Numbered from the stretch's first letter, positions 1 to 14,349 are shown. The stretch is 64,000 nt of DNA from Turneriella sp. (GCA_965279515.1 CBDIID010000003.1:160001-224000), one strand, 5' to 3'. The notes: a model not told the origin generated them from the sequence alone. Numbers and translations: made by a program.

Positions 1-39
1 TCCAAGTATCTGTATTAGATGCGCGAACGGTTTGCTCAT
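1..39 (-). CDS. 5' end of a cassette ORF (MSKPFAHLIQILG...), truncated by the window edge
   Basis: ATG at 39-37 just after core site GTTGTGT (56-50); frame open to the window edge. Confidence 0.5.
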   Translation of the reverse strand, partial: MSKPFAHLIQILG

Positions 40-49
40 GGCTAATTTC

Positions 50-265
50 ACACAACGTGGAATTTACCTGACGTTTGGTGACACTTGTGTCATTAATTCA
101 ACCAGAAAAGCCGCCTTGTGTCACCAAATGTGCCCGGAGCGCCTCGCGGCAAAGCACAAAACAAGCGTCCCGCTTGTGCTTTGTCCGCGATCTTCTGGCG
201 CGTAGGGCCGAGCACCCGAGGAGCCACGGCACCGCAGGGAGCGCAGCAGGTAAATTTTGTTGGGC
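50..265 (-). repeat. attC-like repeat R1 (type A)
   Basis: acacaac...aatttacctg...caggtaaatt...gttgggc; 216 bp with internal stems. Confidence 0.9.
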
Positions 266-269
266 GAAG

Positions 270-1745
270 TCATTCTGCTAACGTTCGAGCTTGGTTCTTA
301 AGGTAAAGAAAAAGGCTGAATATCGCCGACCTTGCTATTCGCGTTAAGGAATCTAGGTCTTTCAAAAGTTGCTCTCTTGATACCTTTTTTATTGGGCCAC
401 TTGCCGTTTCAAAGATTGAACTCTTGGTCAATATCAGGGTGGAATGCTCAAGGATGTTACGGTATTCCTTAAAGAAGCGAAGTTCGCCAGTCTTCGATTG
501 AAGGTCCGTGGCAATGCTGTATAAGGCTATGAGATTGAAATTTCCCTCGCTGAACACGGCGTTCTTAATTGTGGGGTAATTTCGCCAGAAAGATTCGAAG
601 AGAACTGATTCGGCAGCGTGGAATTTGATATTATGGCAAAGCATCAGGCCAACTGCAATTTTGTCGAAAACACCATAAATGTAGCGGAACCCGGAAATCA
701 AGCTTAAGTCTGGCGTAAGGGTGGGAAAAAATTCCAAATTTGAAGTCGTGGCTTGATACAGGAGAGAACGACCAATATGAAAATCTACGATAATGCGATC
801 AAATATATGCTTAATGTTGACCGCCGATCGAAGCGAGCGGTTCTTAATGATCTTTAATGTCTCACTTTTGTCAGCAAGAATGTCGTTTCGACCTGCGGAA
901 CAGGAACAATAGTTACTATGTTGTGAAAGGAAAAGACCTCTCTTCAAGCAAAATGATGCCAAATCACCGTAGGAAGTATCATCCAAAACATACTCGAATC
1001 GGTGGCGCCGATCATCCTGTGTGAATTTGAAGCCCATACGCTTCAAGATTTCCCGGATGTATTTTAATTTGGTCCTTAGAAAATCTTTGCTGCCATATGG
1101 CGTAGCAAGGCGAATGGCTTTTCGGAGATGGTGAGACATAGAGAAAAGCATCTGGGGAGTGAACCGGTCCGAAAGATCATTTAACAGCTCCAAAGCCGTT
1201 ACCTTGCTAGCATGTGCTTCAAATCGATCTGGATTTATACTAAGGGCCTGTGAGTAGAAAAATAATGCTTCCGTTACTCGACCGGTGCAATTCAAGGCAT
1301 TTGCGATATTTACGAGAAGCTGGTCCTTCATGTCCTCATCATGGTCAGATAATTGTTTTAGACTGCGCCAATAATGATTTTTAGCTTCTATGACGGTTTG
1401 TAGGTTTTCAGCTGAATAATCGTTGTTTGAATGTCGCCTATGGTCAAATATCGCCTTTTTAGCATTTCCGAGATTGTACTGGAATGAAGACTTTGAATAA
1501 TATTTCTCATATCGCTGCACTTGAATGATCGCTAAACCTTTTTCAATGATATCAAGCCGCATTTGGTACGCGCCAATGTCAGTTAGAAGACAACCAGCTT
1601 TGTAATGAGAATTAATCTTGAAAATCGAGTCTTCGAGTCTTGGAAAAATATTCTCCAAGAAATTCAGAACCAAAGCCATTGCTTCGGCACTATTACCTTC
1701 ATCTACTAAGCGGTCTGCTGTTTCTAGATCAGAATGTATCGTCAT
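270..1745 (-). CDS. TPR + HEPN protein (LA2681-like), cassette C1
   Basis: TPR-like helices (YNLGNA, ANALNCTGRVTEALFFYSQAL) and C-terminal RxxxxH motif (YRNILEH). Start set at MTIHSD because the ORF-track TTG lies in the core site. Confidence 0.75.
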   Translation of the reverse strand: MTIHSDLETADRLVDEGNSAEAMALVLNFLENIFPRLEDSIFKINSHYKAGCLLTDIGAYQMRLDIIEKGLAIIQVQRYEKYYSKSSFQYNLGNAKKAIFDHRRHSNNDYSAENLQTVIEAKNHYWRSLKQLSDHDEDMKDQLLVNIANALNCTGRVTEALFFYSQALSINPDRFEAHASKVTALELLNDLSDRFTPQMLFSMSHHLRKAIRLATPYGSKDFLRTKLKYIREILKRMGFKFTQDDRRHRFEYVLDDTSYGDLASFCLKRGLFLSQHSNYCSCSAGRNDILADKSETLKIIKNRSLRSAVNIKHIFDRIIVDFHIGRSLLYQATTSNLEFFPTLTPDLSLISGFRYIYGVFDKIAVGLMLCHNIKFHAAESVLFESFWRNYPTIKNAVFSEGNFNLIALYSIATDLQSKTGELRFFKEYRNILEHSTLILTKSSIFETASGPIKKVSREQLLKDLDSLTRIARSAIFSLFLYLKNQARTLAE

Positions 1746-1772
1746 GCGGTCTTGTCTTGGCAGAATGATTTC

Positions 1773-1988
1773 GCCCAACGCGGAATTTACCTGACGTTTG
1801 GTGACACCTGTGTCATTAATTCAATCAGGAAAGCCGGTTTGTGTCACCAAATGTGCCCGAAGCGCCTCGCGGCAAAGCACAAAACAAGCGTCCCGCTTGT
1901 GCTTTGTCCGCGATCTTCTGGCGCGTAGGGCCGAGCACGCGAGGAGCTACGGCACCGCAGCGAGCGCAGCAGGTAAATTTTGTTGTGC
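1773..1988 (-). repeat. attC-like repeat R2 (type A)
   Basis: gcccaac...gttgtgc, 216 bp, near-identical to R1 and R3. Confidence 0.9.
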
Positions 1989-1994
1989 GATGAT

Positions 1995-2684
1995 TCAGCG
2001 GGCTTTGGGTGTCAGCGCCTTGGGGAAAATGGCAAAAAAAGCCCCTTGCAACTGACACATCATAACTAAATTTAAGCCATTAGCCCTGATGAAAACTTTA
2101 CCCTTATTAAAGTACGTCAATGATTTGCCTGAAAATTTGGCCATGCTTCTGTGTTGCTTTGCGGCCTTAATGAAATCGAAAGCCGCGTTTTTGGGCAAGT
2201 CCCTATCTGCAACCTGACTACTGAGCAGAGCATCCAATGAAACTTGCTCGTCAGATTTATGGGCTATAACAGGAAAATTCTTTGCCAATTTTACGCCGTA
2301 TTCTTCGGTTAGACTCAAAGTTTCATATCCTGAATTTCCAAGGGTATTCGCTTGGTCAATTTCCCAATATTTGCCAATCAGAAAATCTTGGGCTTTTACA
2401 GTGGAAAACTGAAAGGCGGTGCCATTTAAGAACTGTTGGATGGTATCACACATTTCAGGAATCTCTGGTTTCGAAGCACAATTCAGAGCAGTAGCATATC
2501 TGGCTATTTCTGTATCTGTGACGTCTGTCTTAACTTCAGCTTGGTCATAAGGAACTCCGCCCCTGTTATAAAGGTCTTCCATGCCAAATTCGCGCAATGC
2601 CATTTCTCGCCTGCTATGCCGACATGAGTATAAAACTAGCGCGGAAGAAAAGAGTATGGTCAGAGTTCTTAAGTCTTTGTTCAT
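1995..2684 (-). CDS. Putative lipoprotein, cassette C2
   Basis: MNKDLRTLTILFSSALVLYSC signal peptide with lipobox-like Cys. Confidence 0.65.
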   Translation of the reverse strand: MNKDLRTLTILFSSALVLYSCRHSRREMALREFGMEDLYNRGGVPYDQAEVKTDVTDTEIARYATALNCASKPEIPEMCDTIQQFLNGTAFQFSTVKAQDFLIGKYWEIDQANTLGNSGYETLSLTEEYGVKLAKNFPVIAHKSDEQVSLDALLSSQVADRDLPKNAAFDFIKAAKQHRSMAKFSGKSLTYFNKGKVFIRANGLNLVMMCQLQGAFFAIFPKALTPKAR

Positions 2685-2723
2685 TTTAGATCCCAATAAT
2701 CATATCTGGCCCGCTGAATTTTC

Positions 2724-2939
2724 GCACAACGCGGAATTTACCTGACGTTTGGTGACACTTGTGTCATTAATTCAATCAGGAAAGCCGCCTTGTGTCACCA
2801 AATGTGCCCGAAGCGCCTCGCGGCCAAGCACAAAACAAGCGTCCCGCTTGTGCTTGGTCCGCGATCTTCTGGCGCGTAGGGCCGAGCACGCGAGGAGCTA
2901 CGGCACCGCAGCGAGCGCAGCAGGTAAATTTTGTTGGGC
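2724..2939 (-). repeat. attC-like repeat R3 (type A)
   Basis: gcacaac...gttgggc, 216 bp. Confidence 0.9.
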
Positions 2940-2955
2940 GAAGTGCATTTTCGGA

Positions 2956-3966
2956 TTATGGTTTGCTAAGAATTTTCGTCTTTATTCGATCAAACAGATT
3001 CTGTTTCTTTTCTGGATTTGATCGATCGAAGACTCCATAATGGGCGCGGGCGATTACTAGATGGGGGAATTTGCGCTCAACCACCTCTGCAATATGGTTG
3101 TATAGCTCAATAAGGCTTTTCATCGCGCGCAGGCATTCATCGCGATCAAGTGGGACAATACCCTCGTGAATCAGCCGGTTTCGTAAGTCATATAAGTCAT
3201 TCTTCCAACGGATTACAAACTCGTTTTTTGTGTAGGACAAGTCGGCATCTACGTTTTTCCCAATATGGCGTTCCAGTTTCGGCTTAAGCGTATTTTCTTC
3301 AATGATCTCATCAATCTCTGCATCATTTCGCTGCTGGATTTTGAGGATATTCCGTAATAATTTGTTTACATATATTTCAAATGAGGTTTGGAGATCAATA
3401 ATGCCCATTTTGTACTGGGAGTTCGCCAGCTTTTGCTTCCCTAAGAAGAAATGCTCGTTGACCCTACTTAGGTCAAGTTTATCGTTCCAACGCCTGAGTA
3501 TTTCAATACTATTTGTAAAGTTTTCCTCTGTAAAAGATTCGAAATTGTGATCGTGTAATTTTCCCGGATCAGTAACATACATCGTAATCTGACCCCCAAT
3601 CTCAACAGGAATCAACATTGGAAGATCTGTTATCCCAATCGGAACCAGGTGCATAATTTCCTTTTCCGCAACCAATGCGGCCAAAATGGAATTTATCTCA
3701 TAAATACCTAAGTGCACGAACCTCTGTATCTGCGCTTCAGAAAAATCAGACATCTTTTTATTCTCGAATGCAGGAAATTCTACTTCCACTAGAGTGAAAT
3801 CCAGTTCCGACTCTACGCCAATATTCTCGTAATAGTTTGGAACAGAGCTTCTGCCTCGGCGCTTAGAGAAAGAAATTATTATAATATGATCTCTCGCATA
3901 ACCTATTTCGAGGCTCAATTTTTGAGGAGCGGGAATATTGTATGGCAGGAGGTAGATAATTTTCAT
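2956..3966 (-). CDS. HEPN-domain protein, cassette C3
   Basis: C-terminal LRNRLIH (RxxxxH) preceded by an SFEIYV helix; ATG at 3966 directly after the cassette terminal repeat. Confidence 0.7.
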   Translation of the reverse strand: MKIIYLLPYNIPAPQKLSLEIGYARDHIIIISFSKRRGRSSVPNYYENIGVESELDFTLVEVEFPAFENKKMSDFSEAQIQRFVHLGIYEINSILAALVAEKEIMHLVPIGITDLPMLIPVEIGGQITMYVTDPGKLHDHNFESFTEENFTNSIEILRRWNDKLDLSRVNEHFFLGKQKLANSQYKMGIIDLQTSFEIYVNKLLRNILKIQQRNDAEIDEIIEENTLKPKLERHIGKNVDADLSYTKNEFVIRWKNDLYDLRNRLIHEGIVPLDRDECLRAMKSLIELYNHIAEVVERKFPHLVIARAHYGVFDRSNPEKKQNLFDRIKTKILSKP

Positions 3967-3977
3967 AAATGCATTTC

Positions 3978-4193
3978 GCCCAACGTTGGATTTTACGCTG
4001 ACGTTTTTTGACGCCTGTGTCATTTATTCAATCTGTAAAGCCGAATCGCGTCAAAAAATGTGGTCGTAGCGGCTCGCGGCGACGCGCGAAAACACACCTC
4101 CCGGTGTGCGCGTCGTCCGCGATCTTTGCCGCGAAGACCCGAGCACGCGACCCAACGGAGTGGTCGCGGCGCAGCGCGTAAAATTTGTTCTCT
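3978..4193 (-). repeat. attC-like repeat R4 (type B, variant last arm)
   Basis: gcccaac...ttttacgc...gcgtaaaa...gttctct, 216 bp. Confidence 0.88.
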
Positions 4194-4280
4194 GCCGTAG
4201 CTGCACTTGTGAGCCTAGGCACGGATGCCTAGGCGACTAAGATCGGTAAAGTTACCGCCGGCATTCTACTTATTTCGGAT

Positions 4281-4895
4281 ATGAGCTCTTGCTCAAAAAC
4301 AATGTTTACGGCTTTCGAAGCCATAATTTCTGGTCAGGCTTTTCTTATGAGTCTTAATTCCTTATTTAATTTTCGTATCTCATGTACATGTTTCTTACTA
4401 CTGCTTTTTAGTACTTCCATAAAAGCGGCTGAATTGCCTGGATTTGATGTCGGAGTTTTAGGCAATGTATATGATACCATTAAGAGTGATGGCAGACCTC
4501 TGGCCTGGGGTAGTGGAGCTGGTGCTCTCGTTCACTGGCAATGGTCCGCGGATTGGCGAAGCGGAATGCAGATTGGATGCATAAGCGTCTGTGCTGGTAA
4601 TCTTGAAATCGGTTATCGAGCACAAACAATCTCTTATTCTCGGTTTCGGTATCCAGAACGACTGATTTATTATATCATCGGTTTGGGTATTCATGAAGTT
4701 TGGTTGCGTTTTGTCACGGGGATCAATTCAGTTAAGAACTATGATTCGCAACTTGGACTCGGTGTTGGATTCAGTGTGCACGCGTTTAAAATAGGCGATT
4801 TCTTCTTATCCTACGGAATAAATTTCTACATCATTAATGAATATATGGCATTTGGCTTAGGTCAAGCTTTTGCAGCTCTAGCGTTTCGGCTCTGA
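4281..4895 (+). CDS. Hypothetical exported/outer-membrane protein, inverted cassette C4 (start may be 4347)
   Basis: Only long ORF in the cassette; signal-like segment and alternating beta-strand pattern. Confidence 0.5.
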   Translation: MSSCSKTMFTAFEAIISGQAFLMSLNSLFNFRISCTCFLLLLFSTSIKAAELPGFDVGVLGNVYDTIKSDGRPLAWGSGAGALVHWQWSADWRSGMQIGCISVCAGNLEIGYRAQTISYSRFRYPERLIYYIIGLGIHEVWLRFVTGINSVKNYDSQLGLGVGFSVHAFKIGDFFLSYGINFYIINEYMAFGLGQAFAALAFRL

Positions 4896-4965
4896 GGAGA
4901 GATAATACATAACTGCGACGCGGCACCGCCACGGAGGGCGGTGAAAGAAAAAGTGCAGCTATGGC

Positions 4966-5179
4966 AGAGAACGTGGAATTTACCTGACGATTGGTGACAC
5001 TAGTGTCATTAATTTAATCAGGAAAGCCGAATTGTGTCACCAATTGTGCCCGGAGCGCCTCGCGGCAAAGCACAAAACAAGCGTCCCGCTTGTGCTTTGT
5101 CCGCGATCTTCGGCGCGTAGGGCCGAGCACGCGAGGAGCTACGGCACCGCAGCGGCGCAGCAGGTAAATTTTGTTGGGC
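4966..5179 (-). repeat. attC-like repeat R5 (type A)
   Basis: agagaac...gttgggc, 214 bp. Confidence 0.9.
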
Positions 5180-5222
5180 GAAGTGCACTTCAGTCGGCGA
5201 AAGCATGTTTTAGCAAAGACTA

Positions 5223-5723
5223 TTAGTCTTTTAAACTAGATTTAATAATTTTTATAAGGCTTACAAGATAAATGACCAGAACGCCTGCGATTGACCAAAC
5301 CTCAGGCGATTTGACCCAATCCATAAGAACGAACGGTGCAAAGAACATTGCCCAAAAACTGGGATTCCGAATTTCTTCTCTTCTTGCTAGGGATGTTATG
5401 AGATTTTCAGCAGGCTTGAAATTAGCATAGTAAATGGCTAAGAAAAACAGAAATATCGAAAACAGGGTAAAAACTATGAAATATAGAGCAAAAATCTTAG
5501 AGAATCGATCTTGAATTCCTAATTTGTAGGCACAAACCAGTACCGATATCGAATAAACAAGAATGTAATAATTGAACCAACCGTAAAAACTGCTAGGAGA
5601 ATTATCCGTGAAAGGATTGAAAATTAGATAAAGCAAGATCAAAGCTGATGCTATCAAAAATGCAGCAAAACATGCAATTGCTCTAGATTGACCTGACTTT
5701 TCATAAGTAATAGAGTTTCTCAT
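5223..5723 (-). CDS. Membrane protein (~4 TM), cassette C5
   Basis: 166 aa with several hydrophobic helices. Confidence 0.65.
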   Translation of the reverse strand: MRNSITYEKSGQSRAIACFAAFLIASALILLYLIFNPFTDNSPSSFYGWFNYYILVYSISVLVCAYKLGIQDRFSKIFALYFIVFTLFSIFLFFLAIYYANFKPAENLITSLARREEIRNPSFWAMFFAPFVLMDWVKSPEVWSIAGVLVIYLVSLIKIIKSSLKD

Positions 5724-5793
5724 CAGGTATAAAGGACTAAGTTAGAATAAAATGTATTTGTCTATAGCAATGAATTATTACTCTGTGCATTTC

Positions 5794-6010
5794 GCCCAAC
5801 GTGGATTTTACGCTGACGTTTTTTGACGCTTGTGTCATTTATTCATTTTGGAAAGCCGAATCGCGTCAAAAAATGTGGTCGTAGCGGCTCGCGGCGACGC
5901 GCAAAAACACACCTCCCGGTGTGCGCGTCGTCCGCGATCTTTGCCGCGGAGACCCGAGCACGCGAGGAGCTACTGCACCGCAGCGGCGCAGCGCGTAAAA
6001 TTTGTTGGGC
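5794..6010 (-). repeat. attC-like repeat R6 (type B)
   Basis: gcccaac...gttgggc, 217 bp. Confidence 0.9.
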
Positions 6011-6027
6011 GCAGTAAACCTTCGGTT

Positions 6028-7038
6028 TCATAAGGATCGCATGCTGAGGGATAGATTCAGAGACATTTCCAGTGTCGTATCTTTGAGTATCAGTTCTATG
6101 GCTAGCTGTAACGATTCCAGAGCTTCCAGCATGTCAATATTCCTTCGATTCAAACTATGGGCCACGTCATTTCTCAATTGTCTAAGTTTATCAATTCTTT
6201 TCAATACGCTGATATCGATAACTTCTGCGATTTCTAAAATATTGCTCATAACGCCCGCTGTAAAATCTCGACCCTCAAGAAACTTGCGTCTGTCTGCATT
6301 TATTCGCGAACTAGAGTCACGTAGATTAGTCAAGTACGTAGAATATGTATCTTTAAGTATTGCTTCAACAATGAACCAGGAAAGCACAATTGTCAGTCTG
6401 TAATTAGTCTTCTTGAACTCACTTATGGCTTTGCTCAGCGAATATATGGATTCTGAAAGGCTGGGCGAAGCACAGACAGCAATAAATAGTTCAAACGTGG
6501 ATTGGAGAATCGTCAAGGGCAAAGGCCAGCGAGAAGTTAATCCGAAGCTAGCTCTTAAGGGAAGACCTGGTCGATGTGTACTCCTGAATCGCTGCATGAA
6601 GTAATGGCCAACAACCGAGTTTGGTGGTATACCGGCACTGGTTTGGTTATTTTCCTCGTATGTGGTGCGCTGAGCGTCAGTTGAGGTTATTTCTCGAAAC
6701 TCAAACTGGGCAGATTTTTTTTCTCTAACTGTTACGCCATCGAGAATTAGAGTGTAGATGTTGCATAACTTAAGATACTCATTCCAAAGTTTTGCTCCAT
6801 GTTCAAAATCAGCGGGCTCGTTCTCACCCTTAACTTGCCCTTCTAATTTTTCATGACTAATCTCAACCATGCCATCACGTGCAACTCGAACAATTATGCC
6901 GTCTTTAGAATGACTTGAAACGATTTCAGAAAAATATTCTTCAAAATCCGGTCTGAGTTCTAATTCAGCCCAATTCGGCTCCTCGCCTGCCCAGAACGGG
7001 GGATTAGTGTAAAAATAAGTAAAATTTGCTTTGCTCAT
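6028..7038 (-). CDS. HEPN-domain protein, cassette C6
   Basis: C-terminal LRQLRNDVAH (RxxxxH) and upstream SWFIVE helix. Confidence 0.72.
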   Translation of the reverse strand: MSKANFTYFYTNPPFWAGEEPNWAELELRPDFEEYFSEIVSSHSKDGIIVRVARDGMVEISHEKLEGQVKGENEPADFEHGAKLWNEYLKLCNIYTLILDGVTVREKKSAQFEFREITSTDAQRTTYEENNQTSAGIPPNSVVGHYFMQRFRSTHRPGLPLRASFGLTSRWPLPLTILQSTFELFIAVCASPSLSESIYSLSKAISEFKKTNYRLTIVLSWFIVEAILKDTYSTYLTNLRDSSSRINADRRKFLEGRDFTAGVMSNILEIAEVIDISVLKRIDKLRQLRNDVAHSLNRRNIDMLEALESLQLAIELILKDTTLEMSLNLSLSMRSL

Positions 7039-7064
7039 TCGGTCTTATGCACTAGGTTTATTGC

Positions 7065-7280
7065 GCCCAACGTGGAATTTACCTGAGGTTGAGTGACGCT
7101 TCGTTCAACTTTGTGTTCTGTAAAGCCATATTGCGTCACTCAATCTGCCCGAAGCGCCTCGCGGCAAAGCACAAAACAAGCGTCCCGCTTGTGCTTTGTC
7201 CGCGATCTTTTGGCGCGTAGGGCCGAGCACGCGAGGAGCCACTGCACCGCAGCGAGCGCAGCAGGTAAATTTTGTTGTCT
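7065..7280 (-). repeat. attC-like repeat R7 (type A')
   Basis: gcccaac...gttgagtgacgc/gcgtcactcaat...gttgtct, 216 bp. Confidence 0.9.
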
Positions 7281-7294
7281 GCAGTTCTGGGCCA

Positions 7295-7960
7295 TTAGTG
7301 GATATCTATCGTCACTGCACCAAATAAGCCAGTGGCGTACTCAACATGGGCTTTTTCTCCTTGTCTTGTCCTTAAATAGACTGCTTTGCTCACACTTAAG
7401 TACAGGTTTTCAGAACCATTGCCATGCGTCAGCACCAGGTGATTACGCGGTCCCTTGCCATTTGTTTCGTATCTTTGAACTACATTCATTTTCTCAATTC
7501 TGCGTTCCTTAATGCTCACCATATTAAGCAACGCGATGAAGAAAATAGTCGGCAGAGAGAAAAGGGCTGCGTAGTAAGCAATGCGCGGTATCCTGAATTC
7601 ATACTGGTAGCCGCGGAAAGTAAGAGCCCCGTAAAAAATCAGCATGAATGCAGCTAAGAATAATAGCCCAAAAAAAAGGATTGGGAGGAAATTGAGCCAA
7701 TTAGCGGACGAGACCACAATACCGAAAAGAAAATTTGATACGATTATCCCTACTATCGGGGCCCGCAATGGCAAAGGCTCAAAGTAGAGCGGTCTTCGAG
7801 TAAAACCCACGGAAATAATAATGATTACTAGGTTTAGGCCAGAAGCAAGTAGAATTCGAAAATTGTTCTGTGGATCCGTGAAAATTAGAATCAAAATGAA
7901 AATCAAGTAAGAGTATTCTCGAACTTTACTGGACTCAAAGTATTTATAAAGTAGTTGCAT
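7295..7960 (-). CDS. Membrane protein, cassette C7
   Basis: ~5 TM segments plus a small soluble C-terminal domain. Confidence 0.65.
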   Translation of the reverse strand: MQLLYKYFESSKVREYSYLIFILILIFTDPQNNFRILLASGLNLVIIIISVGFTRRPLYFEPLPLRAPIVGIIVSNFLFGIVVSSANWLNFLPILFFGLLFLAAFMLIFYGALTFRGYQYEFRIPRIAYYAALFSLPTIFFIALLNMVSIKERRIEKMNVVQRYETNGKGPRNHLVLTHGNGSENLYLSVSKAVYLRTRQGEKAHVEYATGLFGAVTIDIH

Positions 7961-7979
7961 ATGCTTGGCCCAGAATTGC

Positions 7980-8195
7980 AGACAACGTGGAATTTACCTG
8001 AGGTTGAGTGACGCTTCGTTCAACTTTGTATTCTGTAAAGCCATTTTGCGTCACTCAATCTGCCCGGAGCGCCTCGCGGCAAAGCACAAAAACAAGCGTC
8101 CCGCTTGTGCTTTGTCCGCGATCTTCTGGCGCGTAGGGCCGAGCACGCGAGGAGCTACGGCACCGCAGCGGCGCAGCAGGTAAATTTTGTTGTCT
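7980..8195 (-). repeat. attC-like repeat R8 (type A')
   Basis: agacaac...gttgtct, 216 bp. Confidence 0.9.
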
Positions 8196-8224
8196 GCAGT
8201 TCGCCTTTAAAAAAATCATTGGGG

Positions 8225-8842
8225 TTATTCTGATTGTATGTAGGTGAATTCTAGTATGGGCTTTCGGGCCTGTTCACGCTGGATAAGACTTCTTAGCTGT
8301 TTTAGTTCGGTCTTGACTTTTTCTAGTTCATGCTCTTGCTTGAGTTTTTCCAGAGCGTTCGTTTCTTTCCTGATCATAGTGATTAATCGCTTCTCTGAAT
8401 TCTCAAATAAGGTGACCGAGGAAGGGGCATAATCAGGTTCTTCCTGACTTTCCTCGTAATGGCTGCGGCTATTTGAATAAGATTCAACTTTGAACTTGTA
8501 CTGGGAGTATAAAGCGTCAAGAATGGAAATCAACCTTTCCTGAGGACATTCGAACCCTGCTGCGCCACCAGTAAGATGATTCATGTGCAGCTCCTTGCCG
8601 AATTTCTCTTTCAGATAATTGATAACCTTGAAAACATCCGTAGGCCCGCTGATTGCTACGCGTAATGTTGGAATTAATTGATAACTAGGTTGCATCGCAA
8701 CTGAGCTAAAAATGGGCCTAAACGCCTCATAAGTCATAGGTCGATCTTGGGCTATTGTTTGCCGGCCAGTACAATAGGCGCTAAGCAGCACCGAAAGCAG
8801 GAAAACTGTATTCTTTTTTCGGTTCCAAATTCTTAGTTTCAA
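8225..8842 (-). CDS. Putative lipoprotein with coiled coil (possibly DUF4349-like), cassette C8
   Basis: CAGGAG RBS before a TTG start; LLSAYC lipobox-like; C-terminal coiled coil. Confidence 0.6.
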   Translation of the reverse strand: MKLRIWNRKKNTVFLLSVLLSAYCTGRQTIAQDRPMTYEAFRPIFSSVAMQPSYQLIPTLRVAISGPTDVFKVINYLKEKFGKELHMNHLTGGAAGFECPQERLISILDALYSQYKFKVESYSNSRSHYEESQEEPDYAPSSVTLFENSEKRLITMIRKETNALEKLKQEHELEKVKTELKQLRSLIQREQARKPILEFTYIQSE

Positions 8843-8865
8843 AAAAATCTCCTGTGGCGAATTGC

Positions 8866-9081
8866 AGACAACGTGGATTTTACGCTGACGTTTTTTGACG
8901 CTTGTGTCATTTATTCAATCTGTAAAGCCGATTTGCGTCAAAAAATGTGGTCGAAGCGGCTCGCGGCGACGCGCAAAAGCAAGCGTCCCGCTTGCGCGTC
9001 GTCCGCGATCTTTGCCGCCGAGACCCGAGCACGCGAGGAGCTACGGCACCGCAGCGGCGCAGCGCGTAAAATTTGTTGGCT
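8866..9081 (-). repeat. attC-like repeat R9 (type B with A-type tip)
   Basis: agacaac...gttggct, 216 bp. Confidence 0.9.
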
Positions 9082-9113
9082 GAAGTGATGCGTTGGGAGA
9101 TTACGCTTTGCCG

Positions 9114-9674
9114 CTATTTTAGAACCTTCGATTTTCGTTTATCAACGTCACTTAAGTAAAGAAACCCGGGAACGGTACCGCTATTTGTACCCCCCTTAAA
9201 AGGAACTGTAGCTCTGAATTTGAGGGGAAACATCTGTTTTGCATTCTTTTTGAGGGCCTTGTAATTTTCTTTCAATTCTGCCGCCTCGGGTTTTATTATT
9301 CCGTTCCAGAACGCAATTTGTTTAGTCCTGGCAATAATTATCGGGTGAACATAACCCAAATCTACCGTATCACTTGGTGTAATGTAACCAATAAAGGCTG
9401 TTCCATCGGCGCTGATAAATTCGGCCCGGACAACAAGTTGACCGGTAAATTCAGTAATTTCCTTGAGATCTGGGCGAGGGCGGACGGTAGCTTCATCTTG
9501 ACCTTCAATACCTTCTTCGTCCAAGGCAAATTCCCATACCGGACATTGCTCGATATCTGAGATTTTCAAATCGTATACTTGTTTTCGGATTCGCATCTGT
9601 GCCGCCAAATTCGTGACCAATAGTATCAATGTAATAAGTGGGGGAAGAGCTCGTCTGGTCAGAGAAATTATCAT
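9114..9674 (-). CDS. Hypothetical exported protein, cassette C9
   Basis: 186 aa ORF with a signal-peptide-like N-terminus; fills the cassette. Confidence 0.65.
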   Translation of the reverse strand: MIISLTRRALPPLITLILLVTNLAAQMRIRKQVYDLKISDIEQCPVWEFALDEEGIEGQDEATVRPRPDLKEITEFTGQLVVRAEFISADGTAFIGYITPSDTVDLGYVHPIIIARTKQIAFWNGIIKPEAAELKENYKALKKNAKQMFPLKFRATVPFKGGTNSGTVPGFLYLSDVDKRKSKVLK

Positions 9675-9702
9675 GTAAACATCTTAGTCATCGCATCATT
9701 TC

Positions 9703-9920
9703 AGCCAACGTGGATTTTACGCTGACGTTTTTTGACGCGTGTGTCATTTATTCAAACTGTAAAGCCGATTTGCGTCAAAAAATGTGGTCGTAGCGGCTCG
9801 CGGCGACGCGCGAAAACACACCTCCCGGTGTGCGCGTCGTCCGCGATCTCTGGCCGCGGAGACCCGAGCACGCGAGGAGCTACGGCACCGCAGCGGCGCA
9901 GCGCGTAAAATTTGTTGTCT
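9703..9920 (-). repeat. attC-like repeat R10 (type B)
   Basis: agccaac...gttgtct, 218 bp. Confidence 0.9.
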
Positions 9921-9994
9921 GAAGTAATTGCGCCTGCAAGCCTGGCCAAGGAGGGCCAGGCGGCTAATTAAGATAAAATTTTAGGCTCATAAAT

Positions 9995-10510
9995 TCAGAT
10001 AAATGACGGTACAAGTATATCTATTCCTTTGAGATTTATTCGCGATAGGATTTCCTTTCCGCGGGGAGAAATAAATAGCCTAGGCTTATTTATTTCATAA
10101 TAAACCAGCTCGTCTTTCAGTACATTATCTTTGAACACCGGTTCATCAATAACCAAAATGTTTCCGGAAGAGCCATAGGTGATCTGGGAACTCCCTTGAT
10201 CCAAGCAGCTTCTATGATTTTTGCATGCGAATAGGAATATCTCGGTATCATCGCACATTAATCTGTGAAATGTACCGTCATTGCTTAACGCGGAAAATAG
10301 CTCAGGAATTTTCTTGCCAATTACAGTTAGCCCGACACTTGTATCAATATCTGGCATGGGTCGTGTTTTTGCATAAGCCCATGAGACCTTAGTGTTTTTG
10401 AGGACGTTTGGGCTGAATCGCCCAAAACGCAGTGCGTCATCGATTTCGTTTTGATTTGAGAACAAGAGTTGCTGATATCTGTTCTTAGGCGAAAGTATGT
10501 ATGGCTTCAT
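9995..10510 (-). CDS. Imm11/DUF1629-like immunity protein, cassette C10 (first in the array)
   Basis: CLDxxxS...I...PVF...LFIS...LKG pattern typical of the Imm11 family (recognised by eye). Confidence 0.55.
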   Translation of the reverse strand: MKPYILSPKNRYQQLLFSNQNEIDDALRFGRFSPNVLKNTKVSWAYAKTRPMPDIDTSVGLTVIGKKIPELFSALSNDGTFHRLMCDDTEIFLFACKNHRSCLDQGSSQITYGSSGNILVIDEPVFKDNVLKDELVYYEINKPRLFISPRGKEILSRINLKGIDILVPSFI

Positions 10511-10668
10511 TAGACGCCCCTGGCAAATAAATCAATATTCTCGAGATTGATTTTATATGGCAAATCATGTTGTCACTCAAAAGGAATTTCATATAAGAAA
10601 ATGCCCTCCCTTGCCTTGCGCGCAGCGTCGCCAAGGATGGCGACGAAGTATATAGGCGCAATTATTTC

Positions 10669-10688
10669 AGACAACGTCTATTAGCTGA
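10669..10688 (-). other. attI-like site (array start)
   Basis: Minus strand TCAGCTAA-TAGAC-GTTGTCT: a core site with no attC body behind it; CAGCTAA resembles the CAGGTAA inner box of the repeats. Confidence 0.6.
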
Positions 10689-10811
10689 ATTGCGTATAAT
10701 TGCCAAAATGTCAATAATCTGGCGAAAAGCGAGGGGGATTTGGTGTTTTCGCGCATTGCGTAAAAGATCCATGTTCTTCCCAGGCGGGGGGCGCCTTTTG
10801 CGATGAGAGAG

Positions 10812-11750
10812 CTAGCGCTCTTTACACGATTCTTTGTAAATAATCACCCACGGTCGCTCCTGGATGCATTTGATGAACGAGCGGCTGTATTCGATGGTGA
10901 GGCGAATGTTGTCGCGTAGTTGTTTGCTCTCTTTATTGAATTTGCCGAGTGTGCCGCGGTTTGTGCTGAGGGCTTTTTCCAGGTATTCGAGGTTGCGGGC
11001 CATGGCGGCGGTGTTTGAGACGAGTTCGGCGAGGCTTTGCTGTTGGGCGGTGAGAATTTCTTCGCTATTGCGGGCGATGAGAGAGATGTTGGTTTTGAGG
11101 CCTTCGAACTGTTCTGAGATCGTGGAAAAGTAACTTTTTGCACCGGAGAGGGTGACGTTGAGGTCATCGCGGTTTTCGGCGACGACGGCGTCGATGTTGG
11201 CGCGCAGGATGCTGGCTTTGGCAAAAATCTGTTCGGCGACTTCGCCGGCGCTCTTGCCTTCAAACCAGCTGGAGAAGGACAGCATCATCTGTTCGAAGGA
11301 GGGCGGCGAGATGCCACGCACGATTTGGCCGGGCTGGATGGTTTTATCACCTGCCATCATTTCCTTGAACTGGACGTTGATGTATTTCTGGCCCATGAGG
11401 TTATTGCTGAAGATCGCGATCTGCGTTTCTTTCGTGTCGGGCATCACATTCTTGAGACTGTTTTCAAGATAGACGCGGACATAGGTCTGCTGGTCTTTCT
11501 GGAAGATATCCTGCACATAACCGACCTGGCGGCCGCCGGCGAGCAGGACGCGGGCATTTTTGGTGAGATTACTGAGGAAAGAAAACGCGACGTCGATGGT
11601 GAAACCCGAGCGGGCAGTGTGGATACGCGCGCCGACGATGGCGCCGATGACGAGGACAAGAAAGCTGAGCAGTACATAGGAACCGACGCGGATCGAGCGG
11701 CGGCGGGCGGCTTCGACGGGGCTCAGGGCAGGCTTGGCGGCCGCAGACAT
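10812..11750 (-). CDS. mlaD: MCE/MlaD family protein
   Basis: N-terminal TM, MCE motif (V..AGGRQVGYV, LMGQKYIN), helical C-terminus. Confidence 0.85.
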   Translation of the reverse strand: MSAAAKPALSPVEAARRRSIRVGSYVLLSFLVLVIGAIVGARIHTARSGFTIDVAFSFLSNLTKNARVLLAGGRQVGYVQDIFQKDQQTYVRVYLENSLKNVMPDTKETQIAIFSNNLMGQKYINVQFKEMMAGDKTIQPGQIVRGISPPSFEQMMLSFSSWFEGKSAGEVAEQIFAKASILRANIDAVVAENRDDLNVTLSGAKSYFSTISEQFEGLKTNISLIARNSEEILTAQQQSLAELVSNTAAMARNLEYLEKALSTNRGTLGKFNKESKQLRDNIRLTIEYSRSFIKCIQERPWVIIYKESCKER

Positions 11751-12640
11751 TAATTGCCTTTGTTGAGAAAGAGAGAGGGATTTTCTTCGAGCTTACGGAA
11801 CAGCTCGCGCGCGTGGTAGGCGGCTTCGTTGGCGTTCTTGTAGAGTTCTTCGTCCTGGATAAGTTTACCGACCGAGCCGCGGCCTGAGTTGACGCGCTGT
11901 GTGATGAGGTTGAGGTCGCGCGAAATTTTCGACATGTTCTCGAGCATGATCTGTATGTCTTGTTTGTTCTGGTTCGAGATGTCGGTAAAGTTTTTCGAGA
12001 GGATGTTGAGTTTTTGCATGAGAGTATCAAGCTGGGCGGAGAGTGAGGTGAACGATTCGCGCGCCTGTTTGATGGTCTGGCGGATATCCCCCCGGTTTTC
12101 ATTCACGATGCCGTTGAGATTGGAGAGGAATGTCTCGGTTTCTTTCATGATCTCGGCCAGAACCTGGCCGCCGTTTTTACCGTCGAACCAGCTGGAGAAC
12201 GCCATCATCATCTGGTCGATGGAGGGCGGGTCGATGCCGACCCATTCATCGCCGTTCTGGAAGAAGACTTCGTTGGGTTTGGCTTCGGGGATGGTGATGT
12301 TGATATACTTTTGGCCCATGAGGCCGGTGGTATAGATGGCGAAGACGGTTTCGACGCGCTTGGGAATTTTGCCGAGCAGGTCTTTTTTTAGGGAGATTTG
12401 TACGTAGGTTTTGAGGTCTTTCTGGTAGATGTTTTCGACATAACCGACGGGCAGGCCGCCTGAGATACGCACGGGGGCACCGTTCGAGAGGTTGTTGAGG
12501 AACCGGAAGCGCAGGTTGAGGCGCAGCCCGTCACCGGAGACTTGCCAGCGGCCGAGAATGGCCAGCAGGCTGACGAATGTCGCCACGGAGATAAGGGTCA
12601 TGACGCCGACGGCGACCTTGGTTTTTCTGTCTTTATCCAT
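11750..12640 (-). CDS. mlaD: MCE/MlaD family protein
   Basis: GAPVRISGGLPVGYV and TTGLMGQKYI motifs. Confidence 0.88.
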   Translation of the reverse strand: MDKDRKTKVAVGVMTLISVATFVSLLAILGRWQVSGDGLRLNLRFRFLNNLSNGAPVRISGGLPVGYVENIYQKDLKTYVQISLKKDLLGKIPKRVETVFAIYTTGLMGQKYINITIPEAKPNEVFFQNGDEWVGIDPPSIDQMMMAFSSWFDGKNGGQVLAEIMKETETFLSNLNGIVNENRGDIRQTIKQARESFTSLSAQLDTLMQKLNILSKNFTDISNQNKQDIQIMLENMSKISRDLNLITQRVNSGRGSVGKLIQDEELYKNANEAAYHARELFRKLEENPSLFLNKGN

Positions 12641-13398
12641 TATAAAATCGGTATCGGGCCTTCGGCTGAACCTTCTACAAATTGGCGTATCACAGGGTCA
12701 TCCGATTTTCTAAAATCATCGGGGGTGCCGATGAGGCGGAATACCCCGTCATAGAGCATGGCGACGCGGTCGGCGGTACGGAACACCGATTGCATATCGT
12801 GAGAAATGACGATCGAGGTGACGCCGGTTTTCGTGTTGAGGCTGCGGATGAGGTCGTCGACGGCGGCGCCGAGAATGGGGTCAACGCCGGTCGTGGGTTC
12901 GTCGTAGAGCACGATTTCGGGATTGAGGGCAATGGCGCGGGCGAGGCCGACGCGTTTTTGCATGCCTCCTGATAAGGCGGATGGATTGATGTGTTCGACG
13001 TCTTTGAGGCCGACGAGGCCCAGTTTCTCCCGAACGAGTGCGGCGATTTCGGCTTCTTTCATACGCGTAAAACGGCGCGGAGCGAAGGCGACATTTTCAT
13101 AGACCGACATCGAGTCGAAGAGGGCGGCCATCTGGAAGAGGACGCCCATTTTTTTACGCAGGATATTGAGGTCGTCGTCACCGAGGCTATGGACATCGGC
13201 ACCGTCGATGAGCACGCGGCCTGAGTCGGGGCGCAGGAGGCCGGTGATATTTTTGAGCGTGACGGATTTGCCCGATCCGCTTTTGCCGATGATGTAGATA
13301 ATTTCGCCGCGCATGATGTCGAGGTCGACGCCGCGCAGAACGTGTTTGTCGCCGAAACTTTTGACGAGGTTTTCGAGGCGGACGTGGACGTCAGGCAT
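12640..13398 (-). CDS. mlaF: ABC transporter ATPase MlaF
   Basis: GKSGSGKS, LSGGMQKRVGLARA, LYDEPTTG. Confidence 0.93.
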   Translation of the reverse strand: MPDVHVRLENLVKSFGDKHVLRGVDLDIMRGEIIYIIGKSGSGKSVTLKNITGLLRPDSGRVLIDGADVHSLGDDDLNILRKKMGVLFQMAALFDSMSVYENVAFAPRRFTRMKEAEIAALVREKLGLVGLKDVEHINPSALSGGMQKRVGLARAIALNPEIVLYDEPTTGVDPILGAAVDDLIRSLNTKTGVTSIVISHDMQSVFRTADRVAMLYDGVFRLIGTPDDFRKSDDPVIRQFVEGSAEGPIPIL

Positions 13399-13416
13399 TT
13401 GGGACGCCCCATTTTT

Positions 13417-13518
13417 TTGAAAAGCCGCTCAAAAATACCGGGCCTCGCAACTTGCCGCGCAAGTTGCTGCTAAAGCGCTTCGCTGCCCGGTACTTTTGGA
13501 AGCCGCGCGGCTTTTCAA
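13417..13518. repeat. Nested palindromic (REP/MITE-like) element between mlaE and mlaF
   Basis: ttgaaaagccgc/gcggcttttcaa; taccgggc/gcccggta; gcaacttgc/gcaagttgc. Confidence 0.65.
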
Positions 13519-13539
13519 GCAAGTTGCAATCCGCATAAG

Positions 13540-14349
13540 TCATAATCCAAATAACTGAAAAATATACGTAATGAAATAGTCCGACACGATGATCATCATA
13601 AAGGAGAACACGACAGCCTGGATCGTCGCCTGGCCGACACCTTCGGCGCCGCCGCGCGCGCGAAAGCCCGAGAAGCACGAGATGAGCGCGATCTCGGCAC
13701 CGAAGAAAAAGGTTTTGCCGACACCCGAGACAAGGTCTTTGCTGTGTACGAGCGTGCGCGCCGAATCGAAGTAGAGATTGTAGGGTATGTCGAGGCTGAT
13801 ATTCGAAATGAGCGCGCCGCCGAAAACGCCGACAACGATGGCCATGACGGTAATCATGGGAATGCAGATGAGCGCAGCGAGAAAGCGCGGTACCGAGAGG
13901 TAGTGCACGGGGTTTGTGGCGAGCGTTGCGAGGGCGTCGATCTGTTCGGTGACCTTCATGGTACCGACTTCGGCGGCGATCGATGAGCCGACGCGGCCGG
14001 CAAGCAGGACGGCGGTGAGTACGGGGGCAAGTTCGCGCACCATGGCGAGGGAAATACCACCGCCCATGAAGGTTGAAATACCCTGGATCTGTTGCTCCAT
14101 GGGGCCGCCGAGCTGCAGCGCCATGACCATGCCGACGAAGAAGGAGCTGACGACGCCGACGGGAATCGATTTTACACCGATCTCGCCCATCTGGTAGAGC
14201 AGGTTACGGAAGTCAAAGGGGCGGGCGAAGACGAAACGAAAGGTTTGGCCAGCGAAAATCGCAAAGCCGCCGAGGGCTTCGAGAAGTCCTAAAACGCCGC
14301 CGCCGATTCTTTCAGCGAGGGGGATTACTTTGCGCGGCAGTCTCTTCAT
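13540..14349 (-). CDS. mlaE: ABC permease MlaE
   Basis: RELAPVLTAVLLAGRVGSSIAAEVGTMKVTEQIDAL. Confidence 0.95.
   Translation of the reverse strand: MKRLPRKVIPLAERIGGGVLGLLEALGGFAIFAGQTFRFVFARPFDFRNLLYQMGEIGVKSIPVGVVSSFFVGMVMALQLGGPMEQQIQGISTFMGGGISLAMVRELAPVLTAVLLAGRVGSSIAAEVGTMKVTEQIDALATLATNPVHYLSVPRFLAALICIPMITVMAIVVGVFGGALISNISLDIPYNLYFDSARTLVHSKDLVSGVGKTFFFGAEIALISCFSGFRARGGAEGVGQATIQAVVFSFMMIIVSDYFITYIFQLFGL

Follow-up and report, generated by a model that had tools for sequence, protein, structure and literature searches.

What are the giant, multiply branched repeats in a stretch of Turneriella sp. DNA, and what keeps their fold intact? The stretch, referred to here as the window, comprises 64,000 nucleotides (GCA_965279515.1, CBDIID010000003.1:160001–224000; C3:160001-224000 of the source genome, G000), and ten copies of the repeat (R1–R10) lie near its beginning. 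An earlier note on this DNA described them as attC-like elements of fixed length and three subtypes, whose compensatory changes would indicate selection on the fold, either as a single-stranded DNA (ssDNA) scaffold or as a structured RNA. All ten repeats were recovered where that note had placed them, along with every stem quoted there. Our analysis indicates that the repeats are probably the recombination sites of an integron-type cassette system in Turneriella-like spirochaetes, which would use a recombinase lacking the I2 insertion of IntI and a DNA branch in place of extrahelical bases. That the repeats are attC-type cassette sites we regard as nearly certain.

Each of the ten copies measures 214–218 nt from R box to R box, an AAC/GTT triplet bounds the inverted repeat in all ten, and each cassette consists of one gene and one site. 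We compared the four bases that follow the GTT of one repeat with the four that precede the AAC of the next. All four match for 108 of 118 neighbours in the source genome and for 198 of 210 in its relatives, whereas the same 4/4 match within a single repeat is at chance level (14 own copies and 27 of the relatives, against shuffled means of 15 and 21 and maxima of 27 and 34). Such complementarity across the boundary is the signature of an integron: as read from the sequence, sites in the array are chimeric, and a cassette circle would re-form the stem. The crossover falls within the four bases beside the AAC/GTT triplet, a resolution that stops short of the exact bond and is consistent with the integron G|TT point.

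Cassette ends pair far past the 7-bp box. Of 246 cassettes, 208–239 have Watson-Crick pairs at positions 4–10 and 12–18, and 236 have a G·T, read on the + strand, at position 11. At least 15 nt of the ends are paired in 92% of 260 distinct cassettes, compared to 3.5% after shuffling, and 265 cassettes carry 221 distinct end 18-mers, each self-matched. The outer stem formed in this way is ∼18–25 bp long and specific to each cassette. It had been overlooked: the repeat delimited in the earlier note is real, but the true site is longer, and the attI-like site and the non-IntI recombinase described below were likewise absent from that account. Because nine of the ten cassette open reading frames (ORFs) in the window lie on the − strand, the + strand corresponds to the attC bottom strand. 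In the larger sample, cassettes with a clear ORF, apart from a hairpin-framed type treated below, have it in the top orientation in 158 cases and reversed in 33.

A profile built from the ten copies gave 168 matches in the source genome at E values up to 10. These fall mainly into two arrays on C3, with 74 full-length trimmed sites at ∼93–170 kb (array 1, which ends in the window) and 51 at 3.73–3.80 Mb (array 2); the remaining matches are scattered and mostly partial. AAC...GTT trimming was possible for 129 of the 132 full-length own matches. For comparison we used 20 regions of six relatives, which cover their arrays only partly. Full-length matches numbered 372, of which 366 remained after trimming, 361 were in the size range and 349 were parsed, with 12 failures. 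On this scale the uniformity seen in the window dissolves. Length is nearly constant inside the window but not across both arrays, where 82 of 125 full copies measure 214–218 nt and the range is 194–226 nt. Instead of three subtypes there are many more: grouped at 85%, the 336 distinct copies of the source genome and the six relatives form 59 clusters. Near-identical cassettes (97–100%) are present in both arrays, and homologous cassettes of different genomes keep their ends while their repeat subtypes differ.

Among 19 other genomes from the family, 13 have the repeat; it was found in none of 21 genomes outside the family. The candidate recombinase has the same range: 13 of 19 family genomes each, in the same two genera, and none of five genomes from the other four genera. 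Repeats were absent from the plasmid and phage collections searched, and plasmid records yielded only 36–38% identical recombinases among the matches listed (15 of 22). Contig joints were considered as evidence of excision and rejected, because contigs break at the repeats.

We then asked whether the stems covary, using junction-anchored counts that need no alignment; the accompanying shuffles ignore relatedness. In the closing stem (the L stem), 18 haplotypes seen at least twice are 98% Watson-Crick, compared to 71% when permuted (maximum 82%); with singletons, the values for 42 haplotypes are 92% and 69%. Arm 2, counted without the 41 copies of a bulged family, is 91% Watson-Crick over 27 haplotypes versus 48% permuted. 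Read on the + strand, G·T occurs there 27 times and A·C never (69 and 13 times when singletons are included). In arm 3 both sides change in 16 of 17 pairs, and covariation is 0.58 versus 0.18, a value reached in none of 500 shuffles and compared to at most 0.19 in slid controls. The arm-3 set consists of 18 subtype representatives, i.e. the 18 of 39 clusters with at least two members, and its structure came from RNAalifold on the same alignment, which biases this result in its favour. Arm 4 has matched pair exchanges (CGC/GCG 156 versus CCC/GGG 50; GC/GC 339 versus GG/CC 7). The compensatory changes first noticed in the window therefore hold over many subtypes.

Across 319 distinct copies, the 3′ strand of the L stem tracks its 5′ partner, ∼190 nt away, with a normalized mutual information (NMI) of 0.92, much more closely than it tracks the neighbouring arm 4 (0.36); relatedness would be expected to oppose such a result. 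With the distant strands matched and the adjacent arm shuffled, shared descent alone is insufficient to explain the pairing. Modules recombine while stem partners stay matched. These data support the proposal that the fold is under selection, and we hold with high confidence that selection acts on the bottom strand.

The parsed copies share one architecture. In 344 of 349 copies, four helices closed by Watson-Crick pairs come together without any unpaired base between them, which we model as a perfect four-way junction. The L stem is a continuous 10 bp in 244 of the 349, and in the others a single base bulges from the opposite (5′) strand. For type B, the closing stem quoted earlier as 9 bp is in fact 10 bp long with a bulged T. 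None of the two or three classical extrahelical bases of the L″ arm is conserved in the L stem in these copies. The central spacer is unpaired and asymmetric, with 4–5 nt facing 2 nt in 348 of 349. The commonest R-box ends are GTTGTCT (34), GTTCTCT (18) and GTTGTGC (16), and so depart from the RYYYAAC/GTTRRRY consensus. The L stem and the start of arm 2 read TT-NNNN-G-A-N-G(·T)-T and mirror the R arm, TT-NNNN-G-N-N-G(·T)-T. It follows from this mirror that the main hairpin consists of outer stem, spacer, L stem, arm 2 and a variable tip, with arms 3 and 4 as a branch. The branch (∼110 nt) projects from the 3′ strand, where classical attC has its extrahelical bases. Some ∼175–180 nt lie inside the L stem in the commonest classes; arm 3 is mostly 74–79 nt and arm 4 32–35 nt. 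The ∼30-nt loop ascribed to arm 2 is present but is the variable part of an otherwise conserved four-way layout, with a tip of 12–43 nt.

Single copies fold well beyond shuffles on both strands, the + strand best. As DNA, R3 gave z scores of −7.0 (+ strand) and −5.4 (− strand) and R6 −6.3 and −5.8, with 0 of 200 shuffles as stable in each case. The imperfections of the helices also suit the + strand. They comprise G·T wobbles (at arm-2 pair 3 in 299 of 308), a G·A beside the base of arm 3 (170 of 202 haplotypes) and C(GNA)G triloops, which arm-4 families b and c have in 129 of their 136 copies (36 of 41 haplotypes). All four N are represented (GAA 45, GTA 37, GGA 32, GCA 15), and the closing pairs are compensated. 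Of 64 GCNNNGC fragments, only those with GNA give a DNA mini-hairpin, and the RNA counterparts are much less stable, a figure given for the tetraloop form (PMC13037366). The earlier note had left ssDNA and RNA as alternatives. The former is favoured because the strand-specific motifs sit on the strand antisense to most genes, and we think it very likely that the structured form is folded ssDNA rather than RNA.

At the head of array 1 the first cassette is followed by an attI-like site, and a copy with two mismatches heads array 2 (C3:3805399). Judged by their letters, such sites occur at the two own arrays, in five relatives and at two more places beside a recombinase gene; a search of the five relatives with the exact pattern gave no match, and their sites were found by direct reading. 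No recombinase adjoins the site in the window. Two MlaD genes, an ABC ATPase gene and an MlaE gene (10812–14349) directly follow it, where the recombinase would be expected. A scan for a Pc promoter (9900–10850) gave two weak matches, equal to chance. In one relative (G005, L032:5700-6600), two small genes lie between attI-like site and recombinase; by eye, we take the pair to resemble AbrB/MazE–PemK/MazF.

The source genome has four Phage_integrase matches, none at the IntI cut-off, and two of these proteins look to us like XerC and XerD. Canonical IntI (TIGR02249) stayed below cut-off in the source genome and five relatives and was found in 0 of 37 sampled genomes of a neighbouring family in the class, compared to 24 of 251 genomes of the phylum. 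The candidate enzyme is encoded at C3:2926093-2927214 (L003:7094-8194) by an open 366-aa frame, 38–53% identical to relatives that stand at array heads; its closest homologues carry the name Turneriella. In 7 of 14 genomes (G002, G011, G013, G005, G007, G012, G003) the recombinase gene sits at the array head and is transcribed away from the array, and 2 of the 14 have only an attI-like site at a contig end. The protein is 40 residues shorter than IntI in the I2 region, with 23 rather than 64 residues between aligned blocks of 2a3v and a motif spacing of 93 aa versus 133 in nine spirochaete IntI. In a quick tree, its clade (support 94) groups with IntI (100) against Xer (99), and VchIntIA (2a3v) is the top structural match to a predicted model of pLDDT 74 and pTM 0.49. 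Residues 1–90 form a variable helical extension that is absent from Candidate Phyla Radiation-like homologues of ∼270 aa; they gave no family match and no informative Atlas match, and no HARP family is listed in Pfam.

An exact 15-mer of the layout GTTC-N7-GTTC occurs four times in the genome, and only before a lexA-like gene (which scores below the family cut-off), recA, a PA0069 radical SAM gene and the recombinase gene. Near the recombinase start, a GTTC-N7-GTTC box is found in 10 of 14 loci. The generic layout is not enriched genome-wide (94 versus 69–210 in controls), and only the exact 15-mer is informative. We take the box to resemble that of alphaproteobacterial LexA. It is a candidate SOS box of the genus, and the recombinase may be under SOS control. 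That the I2-less recombinase works on the repeats is, in our estimation, very probable.

Taken together, these observations suggest the following scheme. In a circularised cassette, the bottom strand (+ in the window) would form the outer stem, the asymmetric spacer, a bulge-free 10-bp L stem and the four-way junction. An SOS-controlled tyrosine recombinase without the I2 insertion would bind this folded single strand and swap one strand at AAC with attI, itself double-stranded, leaving a junction for host replication to resolve. Branch and G·T wobbles would set strand choice and orientation, instead of a base-flipping readout by I2. In the source genome the enzyme would act in trans on both arrays. 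We offer more tentatively, at somewhat less than an even chance, the idea that the recombinase reads the branch as a substitute for extrahelical bases.

Several points weigh against this proposal, every mechanistic step of which is inferred. Neither array of the source genome is adjoined by a recombinase, and only a decayed repeat fragment lies near the candidate gene, at 1.9 kb; 5 of the 14 genomes, the source included, show no repeat beside the recombinase, one of them on a contig too short to tell. A close orthologue at L038, 63% identical and with the same neighbours, has no repeat within 8 kb and was not counted separately; the other matches in that search for related loci belonged to an unrelated integrase family. 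The tree that places the enzyme with IntI carries no bootstrap. Cury et al. concluded against counting recombinases without the IntI domain beside attC as IntI (10.1101/030866). The pairs that close the junction are invariant, so covariation is uninformative on them. One of them is a lone C-G pair, on which arm 4 closes before a GA/GCA loop, and minimum-free-energy programs leave the spot partly open. Folding energy is silent on DNA versus RNA, with the bottom strand more stable in 120 of 120 cases under both parameter sets. Finally, in the larger arm-4 family, 186 of 210 copies carry a TACG or CACG loop on a closing C-G pair, an RNA-type c(YACG)g form.

This last point belongs to a reading in which the fold acts as RNA, i.e. 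as an antisense transcript, a processing signal or a template in cassette formation. The + strand does fold well as RNA (z −6.2), and tandem G·A loops suit RNA as well. The cUACGg and cCACGg loops match the RNA YNMG class (PMC2346598), while a stable DNA cCNNGg class is named in a title in the reference list of PMC2275088. The structured strand is, however, antisense to most cassette genes, in the 158 to 33 proportion given above, and the sense strand folds worse (z −3.6). The other arm-4 family has the GNA triloops, which are described as DNA mini-hairpins. Recombination on a circle requires both ends of a cassette to be brought together, and the outer stem does this. An Rfam search, suggested in the earlier note and covering positions 1–11000 of the window, matched no known structured RNA family to the repeats and gave one chance hit (E 1) outside them. 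We consider an RNA role improbable. A different reading grants the cassette system but makes arms 3 and 4 a signal to the host: a priming signal, or a scaffold resistant to single-stranded DNA-binding protein (SSB), serving survival or copying of the single-stranded circle or resolution of the junction. The priming sites of phage G4 and ssiA contain GNA mini-hairpins, to which SSB binds poorly (PMC13037366), and arm 4 has the motif. Arms 3 and 4 swap freely among L-stem types, as a separate module would, and a gene-less cassette type with long paired ends has spread to 11 copies. Nevertheless, the branch interrupts the predicted L binding arm at an exact point, with the mirrored G8 on one side and G11·T on the other, where a bound monomer would have to meet it; a host signal therefore seems to us unlikely, though worth serious thought.

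Another enzyme could also serve the sites in trans, either XerC/XerD or a 301-aa recombinase (C3:2781195), with the I2-less gene a mere frequent neighbour. XerC integrates the folded ssDNA of CTX phage, the attI-like site resembles Xer sites in its central spacing of 6 bp, and in the source genome the candidate gene is far from both arrays. We think this improbable too, given the divergent array-head position in seven genomes, the matching family range and the attI-like site between gene and first cassette; moreover, no GTTC-N7-GTTC box is present in the 160 nt before the 301-aa gene. Least probable of all is that the inner arms form a terminal structure that varies neutrally, its strands kept matched through hairpin-templated copying or mild selection for any stable fold. 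Templated correction could in principle yield compensatory pairs without function, the arm-2 tip does vary, and the diversity of self-matched end 18-mers suggests copying for the outer stem at least. A copying process would be expected to remove imperfections, yet the arm-2 G·T, the arm-3 G·A, the triloop and the arm lengths persist while the paired bases turn over.

The features of the window are collected in Table 1, together with the four 15-mer positions. Two of its cassette genes have HEPN-like domains (270–1778, an LA2681-like HEPN with TPR, E 1e-16; 6028–7038, a weak CARF-HEPN match in PADLOC), which hints at roles in defence or as toxins. In 25 of 265 cassettes from six genomes, including 9914–10675 of the window, unrelated genes are set in a common ∼50-nt frame that has a hairpin at either end. 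ORFs are reversed in 11 of the framed cassettes, forward in 5 and unclear in 9 (unclear in 49 unframed ones); the frame may be a chassis for cassette formation. Eleven near-identical gene-less cassettes of ∼194 nt are spread over both arrays (e.g. C3 111121, 115380, 155539, 3735537 and 3772918), with long paired ends and a better fold on the bottom strand, and G011 has a 47-member family of mostly 280–376-nt cassettes of other sequence. These cassettes are possibly selfish mini-cassettes or carriers of promoters or RNAs. Away from the arrays, small clusters of decayed or enlarged repeats, up to 274–308 nt and one with an extra hairpin inserted in arm 3, lie on C3 at 1909097–1910230, 2805272–2808610, 2881524–2885509, 3059312–3061955, 3630678–3634302 and 4810707–4812538. 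By GC skew, C3 would have its origin near 2.8 Mb and its terminus near 0.3 Mb, a placement made tentative by dnaA at 4.28 Mb and a flat gene-strand bias. The bottom strands of both arrays would then be on the lagging-strand template, an orientation said to be rare for large chromosomal integrons.

Table 1. Repeats, cassettes and associated elements (window coordinates, except for the 15-mers, which are on C3)
Feature	Position	Strand	Description
R1	50..265	+	type A; attC-like bottom strand; AAC 54, GTT end 261; arm 2 71-131, arm 3 132-208, arm 4 209-246
R2	1773..1988	+	type A
R3	2724..2939	+	type A; arm 2 2745-2805, arm 3 2806-2882, arm 4 2883-2920
R4	3978..4193	+	type B; arm 4 in C(GGA)G triloop family
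R5	4966..5179	+	type A
R6	5794..6010	+	type B
R7	7065..7280	+	type A'
R8	7980..8195	+	type A'
R9	8866..9081	+	mosaic; type B closing stem and arm 2, A-type tip on arm 3
R10	9703..9920	+	type B
Cassette R1-R2	259..1779	-	502-aa TPR + LA2681-like HEPN gene 270-1778; ends paired 26 nt
Cassette R2-R3	1982..2730	-	233-aa ORF 1995-2696, no family; ends paired 23 nt
Cassette R3-R4	2933..3984	-	ORF 2956-3963, no family; ends paired 18 nt
Cassette R4-R5	4187..4972	+	longest ORF reversed, 4281-4895 (+); ends paired 24 nt
Cassette R5-R6	5173..5800	-	166-aa ORF 5223-5723; ends paired 16 nt
Cassette R6-R7	6004..7071	-	336-aa ORF 6028-7038, weak HEPN-like matches; ends paired 18 nt
Cassette R7-R8	7274..7986	-	221-aa ORF 7295-7960; ends paired 21 nt
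Cassette R8-R9	8189..8872	-	205-aa ORF 8225-8842; ends paired 19 nt
Cassette R9-R10	9075..9709	-	186-aa ORF 9114-9674; ends paired 22 nt
First cassette of array	9914..10675	-	171-aa ORF 9995-10510; ends paired 25 nt, matching shared hairpin-framed type
attI-like site	10673..10694	+	array head; AAC, then GTCTA-TT-NNNN-G
15-mer	4316038		lexA-like gene
15-mer	2600652		recA
15-mer	4249241		PA0069 radical SAM gene
15-mer	2927215		recombinase gene

How does this system compare with known ones? With sedentary chromosomal integrons (V. cholerae VCR, VchIntIA, 2a3v) it shares gene-plus-site cassettes, AAC/GTT, an R box re-formed on the circle, an asymmetric spacer, bottom-strand bias, an attI between divergent recombinase and array, a probable SOS box and grouping on the IntI side of the tree. 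The differences lie in the site and the enzyme. The spacer of classical attC is 6/5, and the Turneriella offset of +2 is unlike it. The Turneriella sites have no conserved extrahelical base, a conserved four-way branch and R boxes that are often off consensus, and the recombinase lacks ∼40 residues of the IntI-specific region. In classical attC the terminal part is variable and unconstrained at 20–100 nt (10.1101/030866), compared to sites of 194–226 nt plus an 18–25-bp outer stem in Turneriella. The attC features used for comparison come from PMC8946536 and further comparison from PMC8352920; the accessible part of PMC3108266 contains nothing relevant. PMC8138268 describes an 'integron-like' subgroup in which the insertion is 'not fully conserved', yet calls it 'essential for integron function'. 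The system is best regarded as an integron variant and not as a classical member, as it lacks two defining features, I2 and the extrahelical bases.

Other systems are close in part. Single-stranded Xer-exploiting elements such as CTX phage attP also set an I2-less recombinase on a folded single strand, a forked hairpin. CTX-type elements have one site each and use host XerC/D, whereas Turneriella has many cassette sites and a dedicated enzyme. Single-stranded elements of this kind are named in PMC7790495 as ss-IMEX. Like clusters of attC sites lacking integron-integrases (CALIN), the arrays of the source genome have no adjacent recombinase, but CALIN average 5 sites (10.1101/030866) compared to 74 and 51 here, with an attI-like head and an intact candidate enzyme elsewhere in the genome. 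In rAID-1 of Bacteroidales, defined by a XerD-like recombinase more than 44% identical to BF9343_RS08045, the genes, most of them immunity genes, lie downstream of the recombinase and run in its direction (10.1101/471110); in Turneriella the array is upstream and the recombinase points away. The accessible rAID-1 passages give no site structure, crossover or attI (10.1101/471110). An integron-like array with a non-IntI recombinase is nonetheless already in print for Bacteroidales, and rAID-1 is to that extent partial prior art. We found no description of giant or branched attC, or of the Turneriella sites, in the literature searched, with most subscription papers and bioRxiv supplements (including the motifs of rAID-1 fig. 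S4) outside our reach.

According to PMC7790495, integron integrases gained single-strand recombination through docking of extrahelical bases by the I2 helix, and intermediates are lacking. Here, arrays of 50–75 cassettes have the integron boundary signature yet neither extrahelical bases nor I2. If the system is active, the origin of single-strand recognition becomes directly testable, a natural DNA four-way junction serves as a recognition element, and large cassette reservoirs have been overlooked. Both the self-matched, cassette-specific ends and the sharing of a hairpin frame by unrelated genes are relevant to the question of how cassettes arise. It is close to an even chance, if a little short of one, that this is a second integron class, a sister lineage of IntI that never had I2 or lost it and that recombines single-stranded sites. 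In such sites the part of the extrahelical bases would be taken by a DNA four-way junction with DNA-specific motifs, and the cassette-specific 18–25-bp end stems would be written when a cassette is made. A class of this kind would supply the intermediate missing between Xer and IntI, hidden from surveys based on IntI and attC models.

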